64,000 nucleotides of DNA, taken from positions 32,001 through 96,000 of the forward strand of contig CAWFGO010000001.1 in the NCBI GenBank assembly GCA_963815455.1, read 5' to 3'. Both the position numbers and the translations under genes were made by a program. How positions within the stretch are numbered: the stretch's first letter is position 1; each line of letters begins with the position of its first letter. Below the pieces are notes generated by a model that was not told the origin of the DNA, did no database searches, and saw only the letters and a list, made by a program, of their open reading frames with translations. Positions 27,753-52,758 of the stretch are shown here, one piece after another. This DNA is from an uncultured Verrucomicrobiae bacterium (GTDB lineage: Bacteria > Verrucomicrobiota > Verrucomicrobiia > Chthoniobacterales > UBA10450).

Positions 27753-27793
27753 AAAAGCAAAGCAGCCCCATCCGGGTTAGCGGATGGGGCTGC
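27753..27793 (-). terminator. Intrinsic terminator of the PEP-CTERM gene
   Basis: 13-bp stem GCAGCCCCATCCG/CGGATGGGGCTGC followed by TTTGCTTTT on the minus strand. Confidence 0.8.
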
Positions 27794-27825
27794 CTGGTGA
27801 AAAAAACAGCTACGAGGAAAGCAGA

Positions 27826-28497
27826 CTAGTGGCTGGCCTTGCGGCGGCGATAAACAACCACGCCCGAGCCGACAGCGGCTATGCCGAGCAGCGCGAGGGT
27901 GCTTGGCTCCGGCACGATCGTAATCACGAAGGTACCGGCGGGGATAATGTTGTTATCGTTAAAGCCGGTATCGGTGACTTCCGAGATACGCGGGCTGGTG
28001 GTGGTCGAGCGCAGGGTGAAGCTCTGGCCCATCAAACTGGTGGCCCCGCCGTCGATGGCGAAGGTCAGCATGTTGATCATATACGTCCCCGGCGGGATCT
28101 CGCTGCCCGGCGTGGAGTCGTTGGTTGCTCCAAGGTCACGCGTTTCGTTCATATAACCAGGGATTGCGCCACTGGTTGAGTTGAACAAGGCGGGATTTGG
28201 CACAGTTTGGTTCGGATCGGGGAACTGTGACGAGTAGGTCACGCCCGTAATACTGAGGAAGGGCGCCAGGGCTGTCGGCACTTCCAGCCAATAGGAAAGA
28301 CCAAATGAGCTGTAACCGGCGTAGGTCAGAAAGACGTTGAGGTTAACTGATGTTCCCGGATTCCAGACCGCCGGGCCAGTAAAGGCCAGTGATTGGGTGT
28401 GTCCTTTAGGCGATCCGATCGGGTTCGGATTTTGACTCTGCCCAAAGGCAGCGGTCGTCAGGGCGCAGATCACTGCGAGTGTAAGTAACTTTTTCAT
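27826..28497 (-). CDS. PEP-CTERM sorting-domain protein with possible cohesin-like body
   Basis: Signal peptide; VPEPSTLALLG + TM + RRRK. Confidence 0.93.
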   Translation of the reverse strand: MKKLLTLAVICALTTAAFGQSQNPNPIGSPKGHTQSLAFTGPAVWNPGTSVNLNVFLTYAGYSSFGLSYWLEVPTALAPFLSITGVTYSSQFPDPNQTVPNPALFNSTSGAIPGYMNETRDLGATNDSTPGSEIPPGTYMINMLTFAIDGGATSLMGQSFTLRSTTTSPRISEVTDTGFNDNNIIPAGTFVITIVPEPSTLALLGIAAVGSGVVVYRRRKASH

Positions 28498-28620
28498 AGG
28501 TGGTTTTTTTCCTCGTTTGTTTTCTTCTTTTCTACTTGTTTCGGCTGGCTGGATTCTGAAGGAACACTGGTTAAAATTTTTCAGCCCTCAAGCCCTGCTA
28601 AATCTCATAATTTGCGGTTG

Positions 28621-28650
28621 TTTATAGGCGAATCGGCCAAAGAAAAGCAA
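28621..28650 (-). promoter_or_regulatory. Putative sigma70-like promoter TTGCTT-N18-TATAAA
   Basis: Same architecture repeated at 31559-31588. Confidence 0.55.
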
Positions 28651-28795
28651 GTACAAATTTAAGAATTTTTGGCCAGGCTCGGGAGCCACCATATTAGGGC
28701 TCTGCCGGCCCCGAAGCGGTCCAAACGTGGTTTCGGTAAGCTTGGTAAAAGCATCATTTCTGAAGTTTCCGACAAATCCGCCTTGTCGAGATCTC

Positions 28796-31454
28796 CTAGG
28801 GAACACTGCTCCCCAAATTGGATTTGATTTGCGCAACATCGCTGGCGTTGATCGTGCCGTTGGCGTTCACGTCCGAGCGGAAATTTGTCCCATCGGCACT
28901 TGCCCCGAGCCGGGATTTTGTTTGCGAGACGTCGCTAGCGTTGACCGCCTTGTTGCCGTTGGTATCGCCAATGAGGACGTTCATGCTCACGTCGGTGGCG
29001 GCCAGGGTCTGGCAGAACGTATCGGTGGCGCCGCTCAGTGTAACCGTGACCTTTTGAGCATTGGTGACGCCGGTCAGGTTGACTGTCATCGTATTGCCGC
29101 TGAGCGCGGGTGATCCCGAAATGGTGGCCGTGCCAGCCGTGACGGCAGCATTGCCGCTGGTAAGGCTATTATTGAATGTAAAGACGAGCGTGTGATTCCC
29201 GCCCGAACTGCGGCACTCGACGCCGGGCTCGCCCGTAAGCGGCAGATTGACGTCAAACGTTCCCGCTCCTCCGTGGGTTTTGCGAGAGACAGCACTTGTC
29301 AATTGCAGCGGGCCCGGGGTCAGGCCGCCCGTGACAGTGAGAACTCCCGCCCCAGTTATAGATTGACCATCGGGATTTGTGACCATTACGCCCCACGAGC
29401 CGTTCGCGGCTCCGGTCGTGTTCAAGTCTAGAGTGACGGACGTTGGACTGTTGTAGGTCACGGAATTGACGGTTACACCGGAGCAAGGAACGGCGGCGCC
29501 GATGTGATTGAAGGGCACAGCGGGCGGCGCCAGGTTCGTCCCTGGATCATAGAAACCTGAACCAGAGGAAGAAGTGCCCGTAATCGTCACGCTCACAGAG
29601 GCCTGGCCCGCCGCCACACTACTGGGAACAGCAGACGAAGGCGTCGCCGGCGGAGGGGCGAGTAATTTAGCGGCCTTGCAGCCGTAAGTATTTGTGGCGT
29701 TGCAGTATTCCTGGATGGTCCAAATCGACATGTCGTCCAGCGGGTCCAGATCGGTAAAGGAATAATCTCCCCATCGGCGGCCACCCGCTCCGCCTGTGTC
29801 TCCGGGCGGGTTATACGCCGGCGGCGTCGGGTTTAAGTAATTGGGCGTATAAATATTGACCGCGCCTAGAGAGCCAAGAGTATCGCCGACGAGCCGGCCG
29901 TTCGTAGCGCAATCTATTGGAAAGGTGGTTCCAGCAGTGCTGTAGCCTAACGCAGCGTGGCCTTGTCCGGAGACCGTAGCCGTAGGAATCCAATATTGAC
30001 GCGCGGTGGCAACGGTCGCCGCGGTGTCGAAAACGGTGCCGGATTGTACCACCACCGGCGTGCCGCCATTATCGGAGCTGCGAACGCCATTGAGCTCGTA
30101 CCATCGGACCGCGTTACGTCGATTGGTGTTGGTGCCGCTGGCCACCCCGGTCGCAAGAACCGCAATCCCGTGCGCGGTCCAGAGGCGCCCATTCCGGATG
30201 TGTGCCGCGAACAGGTTATCGTCCAGTCCGTCGAGGTTGCCGTTGGTGCCACCCGTGTTGCCCAAGATGGGCCACGGTCCGGGCAAACGCCGTCGAACTC
30301 ACCGTCAGCAAAATATTGGCCGAGATAGTCGGCGTGCCGCCCGGCGTACTCACTCGGCGAAAAACCAACCGGCCAAAAGCACTATTACTAACCCCGATGA
30401 AATAGCCCTCGTTTGCGGTCGGGTCGTAGTTGTCCACTCCGCGCGGCGCAAATGGCCCGTCTCCGGCTCCCACCGCAAGGCCGCGGAAGGCCGTAACGAC
30501 GATGGGCCCGCCAGTGAGAACCGAGCTCTTTCGAACAACGAACCCGGTGGTTTGAGTGAAAGATCCGGTGGACGCGATAAACATGTCGCATCCGATGTAG
30601 AGGGCGTTGTTATCAACGCCGAGCGACGGGTAATCGGCGAACTCGCCCGTATCCCCACCGCCGATGGTGTTCTGTTGGAAAAAATAAAATGTCCACGTGG
30701 TGCCCATCGTGATCGTGCTCGAATCTGAGACGGCGATCATGATCCGATTCGGAAACTGGGTCACCTGATCGGAAGCCAACGGCACGTCGGCCATCATGAT
30801 AAACCAGCGCCCGGAAAGACGATCATAACGGATTTGCGGGTCGGTGGTGAAATTAATGGCAATTCCTCCTCCCAAAGGCGTCAAAACCGAGGCGAAGAAT
30901 ATGTCCGTGTTTGCGTCGAGCACTCCGTCTGCGGTGCCAGCTTTTGCAAAACTTCGGAGCCGGCCATTAACGCACAGAATGAACTGAGTGGGCCCTACCG
31001 CCCCCATCGTATCGGGCGGGAACGATCCGGTTTCAGTCGGGCCAGTTATAGTGTCGAAGCTCAGGCCCACTGGCTGCGGAGCCTGGGCAATTGGGGGAGC
31101 GGCTTTCTTCGATAATCCGGCTTCATCAACCTGTGGAAACCGGGAAATTGGCTGCGCCTTGGGATCCTGAGGCCGGTTTTCTCGCCATGGAATTTTCAGT
31201 TCCGGTTTATCGAAAATCTGCTTTCTCCCCTGGGTTGCACGGGGCAATGCCATGATTTGACCGGTTGTCATTTGCACGCCGCGTTCGCCAATCTGCGGCC
31301 GGCCGACGGTGCCGCCGGGAAGTTCCTTTCCTTCAGTCGATTTCCCCGGCTGTCCGGAAACGGCCACGGTTCCGAGCGCAAGCCCGACAAAAAGCAATCC
31401 CAGCAACGGAGCGCTTAGTATATGTTTGCCAGATAATGAAAATGTCTTCTTCAT
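28796..31454 (-). CDS. Large secreted protein with C-terminal Ig-like module and type I dockerin; frameshift near 30260-30285
   Basis: Signal peptide; PPDTMGAVGP, DYPSLG, RWGDYS; duplicated GDTNGNKAVNASD / SDVNANGTINASD; two ORFs join as ..TVAHL|GNTGG.. Confidence 0.85.
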
Positions 31455-31558: not shown

Positions 31559-31588
31559 CTTATAGGAGAATTTGCCGAGCAAAAGCAA
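31559..31588 (-). promoter_or_regulatory. Putative sigma70-like promoter TTGCTT-N18-TATAAG
   Basis: Matches 28621-28650; about 105 nt upstream of the dockerin-protein start. Confidence 0.55.
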
Positions 31589-37463: not shown

Positions 37464-38573
37464 ATGATTGCGAAATTTACTGAAAAGACCGGCGCCACCC
37501 AGTCGCATCCGCTGGCCCATGTCGATGACTATTTGGCGATCGGCCAGCAAGCTGGCGCGTCCGATATTCACCTTGGCGTAAATGTCCCGCCGATCTGGCG
37601 ATTGCACGGAACGCTCCAACCGATCTGGCCAGACGCTCCCTCTCTCACCGCAAAACAAACCAAAGCGCTGGCGGAAGGCTTTCTAGCCGACGCACAAAAG
37701 GCTCAGCTGACCGAGCGCGGCGATGCCGATTTTGCCTATGCGAATTCGTTTGGCCGGTTTCGCACGAGCGTGGTGCGCCAACGGCTCGGCGTCGATGTTG
37801 TTTTCCGCATCATCAACACCGCCGTCCGCACGATGGACGAGCTTGGTTTGCCCGAGCACCTCAAACTCCTTACGCGTTATCAGAACGGTCTGATTCTCGT
37901 GACCGGGTCCGTAGGCAGCGGCAAATCGACAACATTAGCCGCGCTGGTCGATCAAATTAACGTCGAACGCCGCGAGCACATCATTACACTGGAGGACCCG
38001 ATCGAGTACATCCTGGAACCGAAAGGATGCCACATCACGCAGCGCGAGGTGCACACGCACACACGTTCGTTCGGGGCCGCGCTGCGCGGCGCACTACGGG
38101 AAGATCCCGATGTGATCATGGTGGGCGAAATGCGCGACCTGGAAACCATCTCGCTCGCCATTACCGCCTCCGAGACCGGCCATCTGGTGTTGGGAACGCT
38201 GCACACCAGCAACGCCTCGCGGACGCTCGACCGCTTGCTGGACGTGTTTCCGGTCGATCAACAGGAACAAATTCGAGTCATGGTGAGCGAATCGTTGCGC
38301 GGAATTATTAGCCAGCAACTGGTGCCGCGTCTCGATGGCCAGGGGCGCGTTCTTGCCCTTGAAATACTAACGAACACGCCGGCCGTGGCCAACGTCATTC
38401 GTGAAGCCAAGACTTTCATGCTGCCTGGCATCATTCAGACCGGCAAGAAACAAGGGATGCAACTAATGGACGATGCCCTTGTCGATCTTTATAGAGGCGG
38501 GCTCATCAGCGCCGAAGAAGCCTACGCCCGGGCCGATCAAAAACAGGAAATGCGGACGCAGCTCGCGAAATGA
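37464..38573 (+). CDS. pilT: Type IV pilus retraction ATPase PilT family
   Basis: ASDIH, TGSVGSGKSTT, EDPIE, ALREDPD, GEMRD, TLHT. Confidence 0.93.
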   Translation: MIAKFTEKTGATQSHPLAHVDDYLAIGQQAGASDIHLGVNVPPIWRLHGTLQPIWPDAPSLTAKQTKALAEGFLADAQKAQLTERGDADFAYANSFGRFRTSVVRQRLGVDVVFRIINTAVRTMDELGLPEHLKLLTRYQNGLILVTGSVGSGKSTTLAALVDQINVERREHIITLEDPIEYILEPKGCHITQREVHTHTRSFGAALRGALREDPDVIMVGEMRDLETISLAITASETGHLVLGTLHTSNASRTLDRLLDVFPVDQQEQIRVMVSESLRGIISQQLVPRLDGQGRVLALEILTNTPAVANVIREAKTFMLPGIIQTGKKQGMQLMDDALVDLYRGGLISAEEAYARADQKQEMRTQLAK

Positions 38574-38702
38574 CGAAACACGAATGACGAATTACGAAAC
38601 AATGACGAATTACGAAGCCCGAACCTCAGCGTTCGAGCAGACTTCGTCATTCGGATTTCGTTATTCCTTCGTGCTTCGTCATTCGTCATTCGTCATTCAG
38701 TC
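38570..38702. repeat. Inverted heptamer (ATGACGA/TCGTCAT) repeat element
   Basis: Tandem AATGACG arms facing CGTCATT arms; related copy at 45120-45260. Confidence 0.8.
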
Positions 38703-39872
38703 ATGGCTTACCTGGATCAATTCCTAAGCGTGATTGTCGATCAAGGCGGGTCCGACTTGCACATTGGCGAAGGGCAACCGCCCAAAATGCGCCGGCATGG
38801 CGACGTGATGCCGATCCGCGAGGAGCCGGTGTTGCGCGACGAGGCGATGTCGATGTTGAGCGAGGTTTGTGGCGAACATAACTGGAAGATCTTCGAGGAC
38901 CGCGGCGATCTCGATTTTGCTTACGAGATGGATCAGAAATCGCGGTTCCGCTGCAATTACCTAATGCAGGCAAACGGTTACGGTGCGGTCTTTCGTTTGA
39001 TTCCGAGAAAAATCGCTACGCTGGAAGAGCTCGGCATTCCCCTGGTGGTCAAGGAATTTGGTCATTTGCGCGGCGGGCTGGTCCTCGTCACCGGCCCGAC
39101 CGGTTCCGGGAAATCGACCACGCTGGCAGCACTGGTCGATTACATTAATGAAAATTTCTCTCGCCACATCGTGACGATCGAAGAGCCGATCGAGTTTGTG
39201 CACGACACCAAGCGCAGTGTCATCACCCAGCGTGAAGTGCCCGGCGATTCGGAATCCTTTCCGACCGCACTGAAGGCCGCGCTGCGCGAGGATGCCGACA
39301 TCGTTCTGGTGGGCGAAATGCGGGACTTGGAAACGATCTCGCTCGCGCTCACGGCCGCGGAGACCGGCCTTCTTGTTTTCGGGACCTTGCACACCAATAA
39401 TGCGCGAAAGACGGTCGATCGCATGGTGGATGTTTTCCCATCGGCCCGGCAAGAGCAGGCCCGTGCCATGCTCGCCAATTCGCTGCGCGGTGTTCTGGCC
39501 CAGTTGCTCTTGAAAAAAGCGGACGGTTCCGGCCGAGTCGCCGTGAATGAGATCTTGATCTCAAATCCCGCGGTCGCGTCCATCATTCGTGAAGGGTCGA
39601 CCCAAAAACTCCAGGACGTGATCGTCTCCGGCAAAAGCCAGGGCATGCAGTTTATGGACGACGCCATTTGGGCGCTGTTGCAACAAGGCATCGTCACACC
39701 GCACGAAGCCTTCATGAAAGCGATCGACAAGAATCGATTTAAGAATTTTTTGCCGCCCGAAGATCAGCATCTCGGCGACGCGGCCGGAGCTGCGCCAGGC
39801 GACGAGAAACGCGCGCCCGGAGACTTCGTCAAGCGCGCTGGCGCCGGTGCCGTTCGCGGGCCACGGCGGTAG
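38703..39872 (+). CDS. pilT: Second PilT/PilU-family ATPase
   Basis: GSDLH, TGPTGSGKSTT, EEPIE, ALREDAD, TLHT. Confidence 0.9.
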   Translation: MAYLDQFLSVIVDQGGSDLHIGEGQPPKMRRHGDVMPIREEPVLRDEAMSMLSEVCGEHNWKIFEDRGDLDFAYEMDQKSRFRCNYLMQANGYGAVFRLIPRKIATLEELGIPLVVKEFGHLRGGLVLVTGPTGSGKSTTLAALVDYINENFSRHIVTIEEPIEFVHDTKRSVITQREVPGDSESFPTALKAALREDADIVLVGEMRDLETISLALTAAETGLLVFGTLHTNNARKTVDRMVDVFPSARQEQARAMLANSLRGVLAQLLLKKADGSGRVAVNEILISNPAVASIIREGSTQKLQDVIVSGKSQGMQFMDDAIWALLQQGIVTPHEAFMKAIDKNRFKNFLPPEDQHLGDAAGAAPGDEKRAPGDFVKRAGAGAVRGPRR

Positions 39873-51238: not shown

Positions 51239-52758
51239 GGCTTCGGCTCTTCCTTTTTTTCGTCGACCGGCTGGTTTTCGCCTTTCGCCTCTTTCCCGGT
51301 CAGCTCAACGTTCTGGAAGAGATCGGGCGTCTCTAGTTCTTTCGCCTTCTCGCCCGTGATCTCAATCTTTTCAAAGATCGTGTCAATGCCCTTGTCGATC
51401 TTCTTCTTGGTGGCGGAGCTTGGTGTCCCTTTTTCCTCAACCTGTTTGTAGACGACCTTCGTCAGGTCTTCTTTTGTTGCCGCCGGCGTTTTTGAGATCT
51501 CGGAAATTCGCGGGTTGGTCCAGGTGGTCCATTGAAGCAAAATTTCCCTCTGCTCCTTTTTGTTTTTGTAGGGAAAATCTTTGAGCTCACCGCTTTTCTG
51601 AACCTGGTCCACGGCGTCGTAAATCGACTGGCAAATTCGCAGCAAACCGCCGGCGGCCTTCGCCGTAATATGACAATCAGAATGTTGCGCGACGCCGGGA
51701 TCGACCGTGTTCAGCACGAGTTCGCCGCTGCCGCCTTTTTCCACCGGCGGCTTGTCCCGATTAATACAAACGCCTTCCAACGGGACTATCTTGGTTTGAT
51801 GAGGCGTCAGCGTGACCTCCTGCGGCTGGGGACAGGCGTAGTCCTGGTTCTTGCCGCTCTTCGATTCAAGGAGGAGGGCCGGGATGACAAAAACCAGCGA
51901 GCCATCCGACAAGTTTTGCAGTTTAAGGTCGGCCACATGTCCGATCGTTTCGCCGGTGCCAATCGTTTCCACTTTAACTTTCTCGGGCTCCTTCCCACTT
52001 CCATTCGAATGCGACAACACATCCATCGGCTGAGCGGTAATAAAGAGGAGCAGGTTGCGCTTGTGTGGGGGATCTTTCACGAACAGCCCGCCCAGCACGG
52101 GAATTTGTCCTAGCCCGATCGTAACATCGTTAGTCGATTTCTGTTCGTCCTGGGCCCGCTGCTGGGGTTCATTTCCTGTTACCGACTGAATCCTGGGATT
52201 GAACGTCATTTCCATGCTGCCATCTGCGTTCACCCGCGGCTTGATCTCCAGAATGAGCCCCCCATCTGAAAATCCGACCGATTGGGGGACGTAAACGTTC
52301 GCCGGCTGATTGCTCGGAATCGTAATAACCGGTTGCGCAATTACGTTGACGCCCTTCTCGTGATCGAACGCCTTCAGAATCGCGTCAGATTGCTCGCGCG
52401 TGAGCAGGCCAGTGAGGTTGATGTTGCCCGGTTCCGCATCGTCGGGGAAAAACCGCTGGTCAATGATTTTAGTTGAGGGAGACGCGCCCAGACCCAAAGC
52501 CGTCGCCTGCGACGAAGAGAGGTTCGACGCATCGGAAGACAATTTCCCAAGCGCATCAGCAATGCGCGCGTCGATCCCCAATTCGCGCGTCGTGTTTCGA
52601 CTCACCTCGACAAGCTTGGCTTCGATCTGTACCTGCGGCGTCAACGTTTCGGCAAAGGTCAATTGGCCGAAGAAGAGGCAGCTGGACGCAACAATGGTGC
52701 CGGCGGCCATGAACAGGCGCACAACCGCGATCCGAACGTGCGATGTTGTCGCCATCAT
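51235..52758 (-). CDS. Secretin-core domain fused to an uncharacterised domain (operon gene 3)
   Basis: QVQIEAKLVEV..ELG, VIAQPVI, GLILEIKPRV, LGQIPVLGGLF, NLLLFIT. Confidence 0.82.
   Translation of the reverse strand: MMATTSHVRIAVVRLFMAAGTIVASSCLFFGQLTFAETLTPQVQIEAKLVEVSRNTTRELGIDARIADALGKLSSDASNLSSSQATALGLGASPSTKIIDQRFFPDDAEPGNINLTGLLTREQSDAILKAFDHEKGVNVIAQPVITIPSNQPANVYVPQSVGFSDGGLILEIKPRVNADGSMEMTFNPRIQSVTGNEPQQRAQDEQKSTNDVTIGLGQIPVLGGLFVKDPPHKRNLLLFITAQPMDVLSHSNGSGKEPEKVKVETIGTGETIGHVADLKLQNLSDGSLVFVIPALLLESKSGKNQDYACPQPQEVTLTPHQTKIVPLEGVCINRDKPPVEKGGSGELVLNTVDPGVAQHSDCHITAKAAGGLLRICQSIYDAVDQVQKSGELKDFPYKNKKEQREILLQWTTWTNPRISEISKTPAATKEDLTKVVYKQVEEKGTPSSATKKKIDKGIDTIFEKIEITGEKAKELETPDLFQNVELTGKEAKGENQPVDEKKEEPKP

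Follow-up and report, generated by a model that had tools for sequence, protein, structure and literature searches.

Two neighboring genes on the minus strand of a 64,000-nucleotide stretch of DNA (the window; G000:C1:32001-96000) from an uncultured Verrucomicrobiae bacterium, whose 3.62-Mb genome (G000, the source genome) is about 90% complete, encode a secreted protein ending in an X-module and a dockerin (the cargo) and, downstream of it, a 223-aa protein with a PEP-CTERM sorting signal and, according to prediction, a divergent cohesin as its body. Exosortase-sorted proteins of this kind, each with a single cohesin, probably tether dockerin-bearing cargo that is not cellulolytic, and it is likely that the PEP-CTERM cohesin keeps such cargo on the cell surface or within the matrix. 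A cohesin–dockerin pair had been proposed in an initial annotation of the window and is supported here by family-wide co-occurrence, by gene order counted against a control, by gene fusions, and by co-variation of the two domains.

Predicted folds of the two proteins

The downstream gene had initially been read as that of a single-domain PEP-CTERM protein, which holds: its tail exceeded the cut-offs of both models of the signal (PF07589, 27.2 bits versus 20.7; TIGR02595, 27.4 bits versus 16). The PEP motif, transmembrane helix, and basic cluster of an exosortase substrate are present, as are exosortases in the genome; the signal peptide of the 223-aa protein was judged by eye from its sequence. 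An LPXTG or S-layer homology (SLH) anchor was not found in it, the LPXTG models staying under their cut-offs (14.8 versus 20; 14.2 versus 15.9) and SLH giving zero matches, and no family-level NCBIfam model scored over its cut-off. The body comprises about 165 aa (residues 31-195) instead of the ∼155 aa first estimated, and the strand motifs quoted for it are all in the translation. Its AlphaFold2 model, based on 118 sequences, is almost all strand (predicted local distance difference test, pLDDT, 97; predicted template modeling score, pTM, 0.90). When this model was searched with Foldseek, the best match was a cohesin of Clostridium acetobutylicum (E 5.9e-7), and cohesins filled nine of the first 10 rows. 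When it was compared with 48,161 chains by VIA-align, rows 1-16 were all cohesins (Z 13.8-10.8, root-mean-square deviation [rmsd] 2.3-3.0, 125-144 residues aligned), the best with Z 13.8, rmsd 2.3, and 136 residues aligned; the first non-cohesin was the CLIPPER domain of a Gram-negative adhesin (Z 10.0). The predicted model is thus an elongated β-sandwich that superposes on solved cohesins along its entire length, as the initial annotation had anticipated from the strand pattern, and a cohesin fold is predicted for the body with high confidence. Trp40, Asp91, and Gly93 of the domain are invariant. Its identity to solved cohesins is 9-17%, and when three alignments of the body were run as profiles against solved sequences, none arrived at cohesins (best E for a cohesin, 0.37). 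Weak matches to antibody light chains, obtained with one alignment (A6), were treated as chance. Among the Atlas matches, 17 of 30 lay in clusters with some PF00963-carrying members (13% in the row shown), which is a weak lead only.

At the end of the cargo protein, both copies of the calcium-binding motif seen in the initial annotation are present, and Dockerin_1 scored 34.6 bits (cut-off 22.9). Each 12-residue loop is followed by a helix (tail-model positions 125-133 and 156-164), as in type I dockerins, and both loops carry Ala-Ser at positions 10-11. Dockerin specificity is set by these two positions, and symmetric loops permit two binding orientations. Across the tails of the source genome, Ala-Ser or Ser-Ser predominates at the same positions (57 of 89 loop matches). 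The profile of the tail family matches solved type I dockerins (best E 3.9e-8) and the X-dockerin of CipA (2b59_B; profile positions 64-171, E 1.3e-4). The X-module (∼110 aa) is an immunoglobulin (Ig)-like sandwich in the model, is conserved across 21 aligned genome copies, and is best matched in VIA-align by an Ig-like domain (Z 9.0, rmsd 2.0, 92 residues aligned). The two-domain X-dockerin model had no Foldseek match at E ≤ 0.001 (the CipA X-dockerin ranked fourth), and its VIA-align rows cover mostly the X-module. An uncontrolled prediction of a complex of cohesin domain, dockerin, and two calcium ions gave 0.26 and 0.24 relative to a mark of 0.32 and speaks neither for nor against binding.

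Distribution, gene order, and co-variation across genomes

Among 151 genomes of the family, X-dockerin tails were detected in 102 (a count that includes the unpublished genomes G239 and G259, both cohesin-negative) and the cohesin-fold domain in 60. Comparison of the two lists placed all 60 domain-bearing genomes within the 102 that bear tails, whereas none of the 49 tail-less genomes had the domain. Successively wider profiles detected the domain in 41, then 53, then 60 genomes; the widening was done with matches in tail-bearing genomes, one row (L086) being chosen via its neighbor and kin not being independent. Two very tail-rich genomes that were initially negative, G217 and G211, turned out to carry a cohesin gene directly after a tail gene; they have 73 and 69 X-dockerin matches, respectively, versus one or two cohesin genes found. 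Outside the family, the domain is rare: in other families of the order, it was detected in 0 of 109 genomes (single query). A sample of the phylum gave matches in five of 301 genomes, namely, three of the family, G015, and G288, the last of which was rejected as weak and partial. G015, the one credible case, belongs to another family; there, the end of an X-dockerin gene runs into a cohesin-like gene directly behind it (L178, G015:C109), which continues in Asp-rich repeats and has no PEP-CTERM signal. A search for related loci with the single domain returned four loci.

Gene order was scored on a subset of the matches, fetched by cohesin score (the best match per genome, then weaker ones), in which 68 cohesin-PEP-CTERM genes were recognized and 63 were scorable, the other five being partial or at a contig end. 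In 42 of the 63 (32 of 46 genomes, 15 of 20 genera), a dockerin ended no more than 1 kb upstream on the same strand; the tail pattern used for the count missed a few real genes. For other PEP-CTERM genes, the same was true of three of 49, in six dockerin-rich genomes (scorable genes among 68 such matches from the fetched loci and the source genome), and one of these three is a cohesin missed by the filter. About 0.65% of strand positions in the source genome are that near behind a dockerin. Cassettes of a dockerin gene and then a cohesin gene are repeated in G209, G179, G192, and G215, and several genomes have them with differing cargo. Moreover, the longer forms of the cohesin protein (12 database proteins and the fusion in the source genome) were without exception one cohesin joined to an X-dockerin (13 of 13). 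At L063, L077 (G192, G128), and L114 (G247), the cohesin-fold domain is followed by other C-terminal modules in place of PEP-CTERM, which suggests other sorting routes.

Over the 42 neighbor pairs, cohesin distances rank-correlated with those of the dockerin at 0.54 and with those of the X-module at 0.34 (partial correlations, 0.46 versus 0.14; permutation p 0.002, which ignores kinship). Between genera, the values were 0.54 and 0.30, respectively. For the pair with the nearest cohesin in another genus, the dockerin was in the closest 3% (median), the X-module only in the closest 29%. In all 12 cases of one cohesin subtype (eight genomes, six genera), the neighbor was of one and the same dockerin subtype, compared with 0 of 30 others, the subtype motifs having been picked after inspection of the data. 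Both subtypes are present in G179, G181, and G209, each adjoining its own dockerin type.

Cargo, proposed mechanism, and competing explanations

A genome-wide count, as the initial annotation had suggested, gave 47 distinct dockerin loci in the source genome, 44 of them ≤30 residues from the end of an open reading frame (ORF), and four exosortase genes (five matches), none in the window. PEP-CTERM signals scored over the cut-off in 15 of the 18 matches listed. The cohesin-fold domain occurs five times: three times with PEP-CTERM (one gene split by a frameshift), once before an X-dockerin, and once after one. In 36 scanned tail-bearing ORFs, cargo domains were Kelch, BNR, FG-GAP, and DUF5122 repeats, subtilase, phosphoesterase, RHS repeats, and cadherin-like domains, in proteins of up to 3,473 aa; many of the 36 had no family other than dockerin. 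No catalytic family of glycoside hydrolases was found in them at E ≤ 0.001, about 11 short or split loci lying outside the scan. Because the cargo is this mixed, with propeller repeats beside enzymes and RHS and cadherin-like proteins, general display is indicated, not cellulose breakdown. The cargo protein of the window fits no known family: its intact orthologue has only Dockerin_1 in Pfam, and 30 of 30 Atlas matches were without a common Pfam family. A multi-cohesin scaffoldin was not found either, each source-genome protein and all 13 longer forms having a single cohesin domain (the search for longer forms scored only 7,999 candidates). The system is, thus, not a cellulosome; of the cellulosome-like arrangement first proposed, only the docking logic stands, a scaffoldin and glycoside hydrolase cargo not having been found. 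Elsewhere in the genome, G000:C3:729372-765825 and C2:30007-53164 hold rows of at least six large X-dockerin genes, several of which share an N-terminal domain with the window cargo (25-33% identity), and RHS-repeat proteins at G000:C1:593872-596535 and C3:729372-735176 have an internal X-dockerin followed by an extra C-terminal part.

The proposed mechanism starts from the sorting tail, the dockerin tail, and the exosortase genes elsewhere in the genome, and from the divergent cohesin fold predicted for the PEP-CTERM body. Both proteins would be exported by Sec, and exosortase would cleave at the PEP motif and join the cohesin to lipid or polysaccharide. The processed cohesin is proposed to lie at the outer surface, not in the periplasm or matrix, and would physically bind the cargo: the calcium-loaded dockerin would dock on the flat sheet face of the cohesin, one cargo per anchor, its two symmetric loops suggesting two binding orientations. 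The three PEP-CTERM cohesins (including the frameshift-split one) would serve the pool of 47 dockerin loci, and the two cohesin/X-dockerin fusions may be spacers or adaptors. A further-reaching version, which is put forward tentatively as a possibility, is that docking in Chthoniobacterales of this family is coded by specificity genome-wide, with exosortase-anchored cohesin subtypes capturing their own dockerin classes, fusions chaining anchors, and the display of up to about 70 unrelated cargo proteins per cell.

Several observations weigh against a tether of this kind, and they bear differently on three other explanations. Pfam Cohesin (PF00963) was matched by none of the members of the three body alignments (0 of 118, 0 of 40, and 0 of 43), and a PF00963 scan of the source genome gave zero matches; by sequence, the window domain is outside PF00963 membership. 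The missing link to PF00963, the 9-17% identity to solved cohesins, and the similar fold of the CLIPPER adhesin domain (Z 10.0) would all suit a cohesin-like fold that binds glycan, or is a generic surface β-sandwich, and adjoins dockerins because genes of secreted proteins cluster. This is, however, very improbable, as other PEP-CTERM genes adjoin dockerins in only three of 49 cases, the domain was found in none of the 49 tail-less genomes, all 13 fusions are to X-dockerins, and between genera the domain tracks the dockerin more closely than the X-module. As for co-variation, X-module distances within genera follow those of the cohesin no less closely than dockerin distances do (0.65 versus 0.58), the subtypes were, as said, defined with the data in view, and a cassette passed on whole, by descent or by transfer, would show co-variation too, which could account for part of the signal. 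In addition, 21 of the 63 scorable cohesin genes had no dockerin neighbor, including one of the two scorable in the source genome.

No cohesin of this type was detected in 42 of the 102 tail-bearing genomes, namely, those of genus g8 and 37 further ones. All five g8 genomes have tails (7-18 matches each), and they matched neither a broad cohesin profile nor PF00963, nor was a cohesin found 3′ of 26 tail loci in two of the five. Together with the excess of tails over cohesin domains in the source genome (47 versus 5), this speaks for an X-dockerin tail that is mainly self-standing, as a secretion or targeting signal, a calcium-stabilized cap, or the ligand of another receptor, and to which the cohesin is an option that binds some neighbors. 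Such a tail is nevertheless improbable, given that detection kept growing with wider profiles, that G217 and G211 turned positive, and that the prevalence of Ala-Ser or Ser-Ser at loop positions 10-11 is what a shared receptor would lead one to expect. Of a different nature is the possibility that the pair binds and yet forms no outer-surface tether, the cohesin being periplasmic or released and the complex being a sorting intermediate or a free cross-link in the matrix. According to the parts of the literature available, the attachment target of exosortase and the crossing of the outer membrane are unsettled, and exosortase targets can be surface-attached or released, with some staying periplasmic (PMC12188702, PMC4960237); the route by which PEP-CTERM proteins pass the outer membrane is described as unclear (PMC12188702), and those of Akkermansia as present in larger amounts in intracellular fractions than in fractions of the outer membrane (PMC4960237). 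As regards export of the cargo, four secretin matches and zero T2SSK matches were obtained in a genome that is 90% complete, which suits this alternative. In contrast, the size of the cargo (as much as 3,473 aa) and its cadherin-like, RHS, and propeller repeats give it the look of extracellular protein, and PEP-CTERM proteins are reported to stabilize the link between cell and polysaccharide in the organisms tested (PMC12188702, in the part available), so that the non-tethering alternative appears unlikely, and the exosortase-sorted cohesin as a tether for dockerin cargo is preferred.

The locus and its relation to known systems

The features of the locus are collected in Table 1. The two genes are separated by 298 bases, from the stop of the dockerin gene to the start of the PEP-CTERM gene, and the gap contains no hairpin comparable to the 15-pair one behind the unit. 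The upstream protein had initially been described as one secreted protein with a dockerin end; the end is as described, whereas the X-module was not mentioned, and the gene in the window is two ORFs (30216-31454, 412 aa with a signal-peptide-like start, and 28796-30286). Its orthologue in G143, of the same genus, is a single open frame of 884 codons that matches both halves (71% and 84%) and is followed by the same PEP-CTERM gene. Comparison with it places the frame change between 30252 and 30265. The base at 30263 is missing in related-strain contigs from two of four sequencing runs, which are from relatives only (mostly <95% identity), so that the frameshift is not callable as an error for the source strain. 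Frameshifts are common in this genome: the exosortase gene at C1:1009k is split, as are the cohesin paralogue at C1:13.9k and several tail genes. Because the exosortase gene and other tail genes are split alike, an assembly indel is the likely cause in the window cargo.

Table 1. Coordinates of the two-gene unit and its parts in the window.
Feature	Position	Strand	Description
PEP-CTERM/cohesin-fold gene	27826..28497	−	223-aa ORF: signal-peptide-like N-terminus, cohesin-fold domain, PEP-CTERM tail
Cohesin-fold domain (predicted)	27913..28407	−	Residues 31-195; AlphaFold2, Foldseek, VIA-align
PEP-CTERM sorting signal	27829..27912	−	Motif, hydrophobic helix, basic cluster; PF07589, TIGR02595
Cargo gene	28796..31454	−	∼880-aa secreted protein, no known family; C-terminal X-module and dockerin; split by one-base frameshift
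Dockerin	28799..28969	−	Type I-like, two near-symmetric calcium-binding loops; PF00404 (Dockerin_1), E 2.3e-8
X-module	28970..29311	−	Conserved, Ig-like, adjoins dockerin; alignment of 21 genome copies and model
Frameshift site	30261..30263	−	Three-base run with one base more than relatives have; an assembly error or a lesion of the strain
Terminator-like hairpin	27760..27795	−	15 pairs, strong; closes the two-gene unit; consensus match only

The same promoter-like motif precedes both genes (TTGCTTTT, 15 bases, CTATAA; 31560-31588 and 28622-28650, both on the minus strand), which suggests separate yet shared control. These are the only two matches of the pattern genome-wide, a count that is circular in that the pattern was built from the same two sites. 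Farther along the window, two ATPase genes in tandem (37464-39872) encode what we take, from their sequence, to be PilT/PilU-like proteins, and a secretin match lies at about 52129-52353.

No published system uniting cohesin, dockerin, and PEP-CTERM was found, nor a docking role for PEP-CTERM/exosortase targets, in the literature searched, which left out most subscription papers and supplements. What the present analysis adds is a controlled count of gene order and a pairing of subtypes. The window protein resembles the PepA-type PEP-CTERM proteins of floc and matrix in its tripartite tail and in the exosortases of its genome. If the tether is real, it would be one of few defined molecular roles for PEP-CTERM proteins, the bodies of which are mostly without an assigned function, and would explain dozens of "orphan" dockerins in these genomes by cohesins invisible to standard profiles; display engineering, too, would profit from new orthogonal cohesin–dockerin pairs.

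The single-cohesin anchors of Clostridium thermocellum are close in structure, with Coh-OlpA (3ul4, Z 12.6) and Coh-OlpC (4dh2, Z 12.4) among the matches, and the X-dockerin of CipA is matched by the window tail profile. OlpA, OlpC, and SdbA, however, serve a cellulosome, have about 10% identity to the window domain, and use SLH modules, for which a general anchoring role is described (PMC12484212, in the part available). ScaE of Ruminococcus flavefaciens is alike in that, as far as the accessible text goes, it combines one cohesin with a sorting signal at the C-terminus that a transpeptidase cleaves, and has partners that bear an X-module–dockerin dyad, including a peptidase (PMC12484212). 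It differs in using LPXTG and sortase on a Gram-positive wall, as opposed to PEP-CTERM and exosortase in a diderm; ScaE (2zf9, Z 9.2) is also farther from the window model than are type I and Clostridium perfringens cohesins (Z 12-13.8), and no scaffoldin or cellulase partners were found for the Verrucomicrobiota system. If docking is indeed coded by specificity, the latter would be to Gram-negative cells what sortase-anchored scaffoldins are elsewhere, with general coating of the surface as its use. Among diderms of the Planctomycetes–Verrucomicrobia–Chlamydiae (PVC) group, the accessible part of a survey of cellulosome-displaying bacteria names one organism (PMC11557425). Also close are two non-cellulosomal systems outside Firmicutes, the "planctosome" of freshwater Planctomycetes, which are PVC diderms as well (PMC6461901), and that of anaerobic methanotrophic (ANME) archaea (PMC9012536, PMC5244752), where cohesin and dockerin are, in the excerpts available, likewise proposed for non-cellulolytic cargo. 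The tether proposed for the planctosome is a 2,210-aa protein with a lamin-tail domain, with no PEP-CTERM anchor described in the accessible text (PMC6461901), and the cohesins of Planctomycetes and ANME archaea were found by standard profiles, unlike the family of the window domain. The pair described here would join cellulosome docking and exosortase sorting, which are known separately, in uncultured soil-type Verrucomicrobiota.

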